Source of the DNA: Candidatus Bathyarchaeia archaeon
GTDB taxonomy: Archaea > Thermoproteota > Bathyarchaeia > Bathyarchaeales > DTEX01
Reading direction: 5' to 3'
DNA length: 64,000 bases
Assembly: GCA_038897035.1 (NCBI GenBank)
Contig: JAWAXF010000001.1
Coordinates: forward strand, 27,895 to 91,894
Shown here: positions 30,347-31,072 of the stretch, piece after piece
Numbering within the stretch: the stretch's first letter is position 1
Layout: the number at the start of each line of letters is the position of its first letter
Program-made: the position numbers and the translations under genes
The notes under the pieces: generated by a model
The model's input: the letters and a program-made list of their open reading frames with translations, nothing else
The model's database searches: none
What the model was told of the DNA's origin: nothing

Positions 30347-31072
30347 TCAGCCGCGCCTAATCCTGTGCCCATATCTGCCTAGAAGCGGCACGAACGCTAC
30401 CCCACCAAGGTTCTCCTCAATAATCCTGCAATTCTCCAATTTCCTGACGCGTATCAGCGTCTGATAAAACCCCACCTCGCCTACCGGTATAACCATGATT
30501 CCACCCGGTCTAAGTTGCTCCTTTAATGGGGCTGGTATGTTTGGGGCCGCGGCCGTTACAAGTATCCTATCGTATGGCGCCTCATTCGGATAGCCAAGAG
30601 ATCCATCACCACATATGACAGTAATTCTATCACCATAACCAGCCTCCTCAATATTTTTCCTGGCAAACTCGGCCAGTTCCGGTATGATCTCTACGGTATA
30701 CACGTGACCCCACTTCCCCCTCGGGGCGTCGCTCGGAGCAACTATCTCAGCTACCGTTGAGGCATGCCAGCCGGATCCGGAGCCGACCTCAAGAACCCTG
30801 TGCCCCACATCTAACTCAAGGGCCTCATTCATTATGGATACCATGTCTCGCCGGGCTAATCGCAAGAATTAGCCCTGTGGCGCGGAAACAGTCTGCCCAT
30901 AACCTATCGGAAGCGGAGTATCAACCGCAGCATATAGCTTCTGATCCTCCGGTAGGAAAAGACTCCTGGGCACAAGTCTCATAGCCCTAATAACCCTAGG
31001 AGACCTAAGTATACCGGACGCAATTAAGTTCTCGATGAGTTTTTCCCACTCACCCCCAGACAAGAGCGACAC
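30347..31072 (-). CDS. pcm: Protein-L-isoaspartate O-methyltransferase; two exons (31072-30877 and 30846-30347), 231 aa after splicing
   Basis: [62 protein letters not shown]. Confidence 0.92.
30847..30876 (-). other. 30-nt archaeal BHB-type mRNA intron
   Basis: CGCC-AC^A-GGGCTAAT-TCTTGCG-ATTAGCCC-GGCG-AG^A-C: two 3-nt bulges around a 4-bp helix; contains in-frame TAA; excision gives CCA CAC ATG (P-H-M). Confidence 0.88.

Follow-up and report, generated by a model that had tools for sequence, protein, structure and literature searches.

A putative BHB-type intron in the coding sequence of the isoaspartate-repair gene pcm of Bathyarchaeia

In protein-coding genes of archaea, BHB-type introns are known from the cbf5 pre-mRNA of Desulfurococcales and Sulfolobales (Watanabe 2002 and Yoshinari 2006, as cited; Yokobori 2009, PMC2738675). 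According to the accessible text of two later papers, cbf5 is the only gene reported to have such an intron in its coding region, the intron of HVO_1309 being located in the leader (PMC7714728, 2020; PMC10485636, 2023), and more EndA-spliced archaeal mRNAs are probably still to be found (PMC10485636). As of 2009, the introns predicted for further protein genes were unconfirmed, and for the cbf5 intron itself a gain followed by repeated precise losses was proposed, as far as the available part of that paper goes (PMC2738675). It is important to mention that relaxed motifs are, in the accessible portion of PMC6379350, cut efficiently by (alpha-beta)2 and epsilon2 endonucleases only.

Here, we describe a putative intron of this kind in pcm of a hot-spring archaeon of Candidatus Bathyarchaeia. 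The comparison with cbf5 is a close one, and in the available text of PMC2738675 the two cases share a short relaxed BHB intron in a coding gene, the presence of a two-subunit EndA (in our case a probable one) and a ligase, patchy gains and losses, and the confusion of gene prediction. They differ in gene and lineage, and whereas cbf5 splicing is experimental, that of pcm is read from sequence; moreover, the exon half of the central helix in pcm is an invariant catalytic-motif codon pair. In HVO_1309 of Haloferax volcanii the archaeal splicing endonuclease also acts on an mRNA, as it would in pcm, but the HVO_1309 intron is located in the 5'-UTR and is handled by a homodimeric enzyme, whereas the pcm intron lies in coding sequence and breaks the frame (Schwarz 2020, PMC7714728, and PMC10485636, both as far as accessible). 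With the non-canonical, relaxed HBh' tRNA introns of Crenarchaeota, as described in the accessible part of PMC6379350, pcm has in common the 4-bp central helix and a single well-formed bulge that is flanked by a helix, the second site being poorly closed, although its host RNA is an mRNA and offers no tRNA body to aid recognition. The HAC1/XBP1 system also represents spliceosome-independent, cut-and-ligate splicing of an mRNA with an altered reading frame; however, it uses stress-activated Ire1 and twin stem-loops and its regulation is demonstrated, whereas in pcm the elements are EndA and a BHB, known from sequence (PMC13149111, available in part).

Our literature search, which had subscription journals outside its coverage, returned no paper on a pcm intron or on mRNA introns of Bathyarchaeia. 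Judged against the accessible text of the papers cited above, pcm would be the third gene, beside cbf5 and HVO_1309, to serve as an mRNA substrate of archaeal EndA, and the first in Bathyarchaeia. The early predictions noted above may include one that touches pcm.

The interrupted pcm gene and its predicted intron

In the window (the whole stretch of 64,000 nucleotides that was analysed), pcm is located on the minus strand at positions 31072..30347. Two open reading frames cover it. The first (31072..30869, minus strand) encodes 67 amino acids, starts with GTG and terminates at the TAA at 30871-30869, and the second extends over 30865..30347 (minus strand). When the stop was entered as X, the read-through product matched the P. 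furiosus PIMT 1JG1 (E 4.8e-54) over its whole length, except for 10 residues that have no counterpart in solved PIMTs and are positioned exactly between GQTVSAPH and MV. The Pfam profile PCMT (PF01135) scored 194.5 bits and was matched from position 4 to position 208 of its 210, the first piece accounting for positions 4-60 and the second for 61-208. The profile is thus continuous from 60 to 61, and therefore the two pieces abut and nothing is lost between them. The product also scored 189.6 bits with the NCBIfam model TIGR00080, whose cut-off is 159. Elsewhere in the protein, a 9-residue insertion relative to the P. furiosus enzyme, APSDAPRGK, was observed at about residues 112-120 (window 30720-30746, minus strand); a similar stretch with the consensus APxDxPREKW is kept in intron-bearing relatives and appears as a lineage-specific loop of Pcm.

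The interruption falls within SAP-H|MV, the invariant and most conserved motif of pcm (GQTxSAP-H|MV). Exon 1 (30877..31072, minus strand) runs from the GTG at 31072 to the C of a split His codon (GCG CCA C), and exon 2 (30347..30846, minus strand, stop codon included) opens with AC AUG GUA, that is, with the remainder of the His codon followed by M-V. The predicted intron between them comprises 30 nt (30847..30876, minus strand; G000:C1:58741-58770), arranged as an A, a 9-bp inner hairpin with a 5-nt loop, GGCG and AG. It is supported by the 10-residue gap relative to 1JG1, the fold, the genome scan described below, conservation and pair counts. Removal of positions 30876..30847 joins CCA-C with AC-AUG into CCA-CAC-AUG (P-H-M), and, because of a repeated A, this cut can be moved by one base either way. 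The first-pass annotation had pointed out that the insert is a multiple of three in length, that it carries an in-frame TAA at 30869-30871 and that the unspliced mRNA yields a 67-aa product, and all these coordinates were confirmed.

In the predicted fold, CGCC of exon 1, which belongs to the Ala-Pro codons (30879..30882, minus strand), pairs with GGCG of the intron (30849..30852, minus strand) in a central helix of 4 bp. The inner hairpin h' (30853..30875, minus strand), with the TAA (30869..30871, minus strand) in the 5' arm of its helix, stacks on the central helix. The 5' bulge, ACA (30876..30878, minus strand), is unpaired in all folds, whereas the 3' bulge, AGA (30846..30848, minus strand), would be closed by the pair G30883-C30845 alone. 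By the canonical rule known from tRNA introns, each 3-nt bulge of a BHB is cut between its second and third bases. Applied here, this rule gives AC|A and AG|A, and hence exactly the 30-nt excision demanded by homology.

The two sides of the motif differ in their predicted stability. The central helix, the 5' bulge and the inner helix have pair probabilities of at least 0.85 up to 80 C, so that the core is predicted to be stable at 37-80 C. The 3' bulge, located two bases 3' of the central helix, has a probability of about 0 in the nearest-neighbour model at every temperature from 37 to 90 C, and the outer helix h consists of one invariant G-C pair followed by pairs that can form in 26/82 and 0/82 relatives. 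Because the 3' bulge is absent from the energy-model folds, we classed the motif as relaxed and HBh'-like; for the same reason, cleavage at the 3' site would depend on the tolerance of two-subunit EndA for relaxed motifs, as documented in the accessible part of PMC6379350. No Rfam family matched positions 30300-31200, and no second copy of the intron was found in the genome, the best chance match being 13 nt long (E 0.28).

Conservation, covariation and distribution of the intron

In order to place the insert among relatives, junctions were located by tblastn with the two exon translations as queries. A pcm gene was found in 40 of 41 genomes (40 related genomes and the window's own), and 36 of the 38 loci from the 40 related genomes had an insert at the identical codon, with two lacking it. 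Among the loci from named Bathyarchaeia records the insert was present in 69 of 80 and absent from 11, and after collapsing identical loci it remained in 82 of 95 distinct ones. Most related archaea share this intron, at an identical codon, and it is therefore real and old. The first-pass annotation had taken the insert for a BHB-type intron, and the fold, the covarying helices described below and this positional identity all bear that out.

In a phylum-wide sample pcm was found in 88 of 121 genomes, and of 20 junctions fetched seven had the insert and 13 did not; the genome catalogue assigns the seven carriers to four families outside the window's class, and the named record nearest to one of them (L143) is titled Bathyarchaeia. 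A broad scan with generic patterns, which serves as an outgroup sample only, added at least 80 further pcm loci, with the insert in two among the matches listed (L143, and L145 from a Thermoproteota archaeon). The 78 other listed loci were contiguous, four of them having been flagged by the script and judged so on reading, and they included Nitrososphaerota, Sulfolobales, Acidilobus, Desulfurococcaceae, Thermoplasmata, Heimdallarchaeota and many bacteria.

Of the 124 Pcm sequences in a quick maximum-likelihood tree, from which the partial rows L149, L150, L151, L154 and L156 were excluded, 91 come from genes with the intron, almost all from Bathyarchaeia, and 33 from genes without it. Intron-less alleles are nested at several places within the carrier clade. 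Intron presence changes 11 times on the best tree, as compared with a mean of 29 changes with shuffled labels, and at least three changes are forced by well-supported branches, with the root and the placement of the long-branch carriers L129 and L145 being uncertain. The junctions of the intron-less alleles read CCN-CAY-AUG, exactly as BHB cutting predicts, and at least 15 alleles represent such precise losses. A single early gain in Bathyarchaeia followed by several precise losses is the most likely history.

The inserts behave as non-coding sequence. Their lengths range from 23 to 46 nt over all 91 (28-46 nt in the set of 82 distinct loci, with outliers of 23 and 25 nt), and in the set of 82 they are spread evenly over the three classes modulo 3 (25:30:27). 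Each of the 25 in-frame introns of this set carries an in-frame stop, and the other 57 all cause a frameshift, 38 of them with a stop in the insert itself and 19 with one no more than 20 codons after it; none of the nine further introns is in frame. Given these stops and frameshifts, none of the 91 introns can be translated through. The first-pass annotation had asked whether orthologous introns consistently carry a stop or a frameshift, and this proved to be so throughout. Full-length Pcm requires intron removal.

The second line of evidence is pairing. The 82 junctions were aligned without a structure reference (alignment A2), and the 13 pairs of the BHB core were counted. Pairing was observed in 94.3% of 1066 cells, compared with 77.1% after shuffling (0 of 500 shuffles reached the observed value), and cells with changes on both sides numbered 228 against 81 expected; the sequences are related and not independent, and therefore the shuffle controls overstate the significance. 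A control in which the partners were slid by 1-3 columns retains this relatedness, yet pairing collapsed to 20-41%. Both-sided changes occurred in nine of the 13 pairs, namely all eight counted pairs of the inner helix h', in which 90.9% of cells are paired, and one pair of the central helix (GCACC with GGUG). The central helix is paired in 99.7% of cells over the 82 sequences, with compensatory changes from GC to AU in four and GU in three. The G-C pair closing the 3' bulge was found in 82/82, and the 5' bulge is ACA in 67/82 and otherwise ACU, ACG, UCU or UCA.

Codon usage around the junction reflects the same structure. In the 82 carriers the Ala codon is GCG in 78 and GCA in four, the Pro codon is CCA in 77 and CCU in five, and the His codon is CAC in all; by contrast, four different codons for Ala and four for Pro occur in the 13 intron-less loci, and their His codon is CAC in nine and CAU in four. 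The GCA codon covaries with GGUG, and the invariant G closing the 3' bulge pairs with the C of CAC. Flanking synonymous sites are frozen in carriers only, and the exon is thus constrained by the intron. With 91 introns and at least 15 precise-loss alleles, pcm provides a large natural data set that shows how an mRNA intron persists, with codons of an invariant motif forming half of the recognition helix and with synonymous sites frozen.

Splicing enzymes and the readings of the locus

The splicing enzymes that the first-pass annotation had invoked, EndA and RtcB, are both encoded in the genome. The gene for the RNA-splicing ligase, rtcB, which had been placed about 9 kb from pcm, is located at 40340..41650 of the window (plus strand; G000:C1:68234-69544), 9.3 kb away; it is uninterrupted and its product matches PF01139 with 585 bits. 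RtcB is the ligase of unconventional splicing in animals. EndA, a housekeeping tRNA enzyme, is represented by two paralogs of 191 and 201 amino acids, each with N- and C-terminal EndA domains, at G000:C1:95017-95592 (about 3.1 kb past the right end of the window) and G000:C13:11680-12285. They score 106 and 78 bits with PF01974, and both are above the cut-off of TIGR00324. In alignments to models of two-unit enzymes, one paralog corresponds to the second half and its partner to the first half; by eye, the catalytic Tyr/His/Lys are kept in the first paralog and the His is absent from the second. These features suggest that the pair forms a two-subunit, (alpha-beta)2-like enzyme. ARAGORN reported introns in 16 of 37 tRNA genes, of which a few of about 300 nt may be false. 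The 37 genes include duplicate anticodons and two genes with introns of about 300 nt, and the set looks incomplete, which suggests that ARAGORN probably misses further tRNAs with non-canonical or multiple introns.

On the basis of anatomy, conservation, covariation, frame behaviour, exon constraint and the enzyme genes, we consider it highly probable that pcm contains an obligatory BHB mRNA intron spliced by EndA and RtcB. In the pre-mRNA, CGCC of the exon and GGCG of the intron would form the 4-bp central helix, and the splice sites would lie in two bulges of 3 nt, one per strand and positioned two bases 3' of this helix; the stable intron hairpin would stack on one side, and the single conserved G-C pair would close the other. 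Two-subunit EndA would then cut both bulges and RtcB would ligate the exons into CCA-CAC-AUG, giving the full-length methyltransferase, whereas unspliced mRNA would give only the 67-aa fragment. A separately initiated C-terminal fragment may also arise from the conserved AUG of exon 2. Cleavage, ligation, the exact cut sites and constitutive splicing are what we infer from these features; positions 29400-33300 of the window received 0 reads from four hot-spring metatranscriptome runs, of which just 3-5% of each raw run was sampled. Gene callers will split or discard pcm in most Bathyarchaeia genomes, and surveys would therefore wrongly score the repair enzyme as missing or truncated.

The first-pass annotation had further proposed that Pcm output depends on tRNA-splicing capacity or on the temperature-dependent folding of a weak outer helix. 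Output does depend on splicing capacity, although trivially so; no computed feature of the intron lends support to regulation, and a 'switch' is speculation. In its fuller form, this reading makes the intron a gate for regulation, at which temperature, growth phase or the capacity of RtcB and EndA would set splicing efficiency and hence Pcm output, for instance through a competition between the BHB and a slipped helix that hides the 3' site. We regard such gating as unlikely, even though function requires splicing, the motif is weak on its 3' side and the intron has been retained across deep divergence.

At 60-80 C the energy model prefers a slipped outer helix in which (U)GUUU pairs with A(A/G)ACA (30845-30848 with 30886-30890, minus strand), and which would bury the 3' site; this alternative pairing of 4-5 bp can form in 85.7% of cells across relatives, and on the model it is a possible competitor conformer. 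However, its bases are almost all codon-fixed, just as the weakness of the outer helix is largely set by the coding sequence, and no covariation beyond column composition was detected in it: the variable pair 3-59 is paired in 64/82, where about 76% is expected by a hand estimate. The core helices, moreover, are predicted to be stable over the whole range from 37 to 80 C given above.

Stop codons could also be taken as support for gating. In the read-through frame stops occur in 63/82 introns, against 28.6 +/- 4.2 in shuffled sequences, which would suit selection for a clean 'off' product, although these sequences are not independent. The enrichment extends to all three frames, however, as stops in the other two frames are present in 40 and 49 of 82 introns where shuffles give about 28. 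The cause could be selection for stopping translation early on unspliced mRNA; equally, the stops could be a by-product of helix words such as CUAG, UUAA and UGA/UCA.

Distribution speaks against gating as well. Carriers include hot-spring bins and bins whose record names suggest an origin in peat, soil or a seep, and the repeated losses of the intron (at least three forced changes, 11 on the best tree) indicate that it is dispensable. Taken together, the mixed sources and the repeated loss argue against an indispensable heat-specific role. We also know of no regulation of cbf5 splicing, the known analogue.

A still broader version would make the intron a lineage-wide control point, in which competition between the BHB and the slipped helix, or competition of tRNAs for EndA and RtcB, adjusts how much isoaspartate-repair enzyme is made, according to temperature or the condition of the RNA-repair machinery, the stops providing a clean off-state. 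We consider this improbable; if true, it would be an archaeal counterpart of HAC1/XBP1-type control. In any case, the pcm intron offers a concrete, conserved substrate for asking whether archaeal mRNA splicing is ever regulated.

Two readings do without RNA splicing. The 67-aa chain and a chain of about 165 amino acids beginning at the conserved AUG could assemble as a split protein, or the gene could be a broken pseudogene. The invariant AUG at the opening of exon 2 and the two open reading frames visible to gene callers would fit a split gene, but such a protein has no need of a covarying exon-insert helix or of frozen synonymous sites, and in many lineages it would lose or replace the invariant His, the read-through codon being CAG here and CUC or CGG elsewhere. 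Nor would both halves of a pseudogene stay 60-87% identical across 91 genomes, and we hold either version to be very improbable. Translational bypassing, in which ribosomes would hop over the hairpin and the stop on uncut RNA as in phage T4 gene 60, would accord with the short coding gap, the stable hairpin and the early stop, but take-off and landing codons that match are missing (Pro CCA stands before the gap, with no CCN after it), and what is conserved belongs to a BHB (the 4-bp helix and symmetric 3-nt bulges). Of all the readings it is the least credible.

Search for further mRNA introns in the genome

We scanned the whole genome for mRNA introns, combining BHB geometry in both topologies with the merging of open reading frames, for intron lengths of 13-120 nt. 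The scan, which is blind to stop-free in-frame introns and to exons of fewer than 40 codons, yielded 71,572 structural candidates, which were reduced to 3,055 by a lenient ORF test, to 243 by a stricter one and to 24 by the strictest, with pcm recovered. None of the 23 other strict candidates survived inspection, seven being examined with Pfam and 16 by eye from the flank translations. The first-pass annotation had suggested that other split genes of the lineage may hide similar introns; in this genome the scan left only pcm, and the TruB_N region of its cbf5 shows no interruption.

Among the candidates rejected with Pfam, three are junctions of unrelated genes (nitroreductase and DUF6092, M50 peptidase and PP-loop, GHMP kinase and amino-acid kinase), two lie in the wrong frame inside the intact genes of CysRS and AOR, and two have an upstream piece without a family. 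A hairpin at 23105-23133 of the window was also rejected as an intron, as it sits between convergent gene ends. Its shape is nearly a perfect hBHBh' (h 4 bp, H 4 bp, h' 7 bp), and it is located between a 234-aa ORF (22411-23115) and a 445-aa ORF (23121-24458, minus strand). Most likely, it represents a shared terminator-like hairpin.
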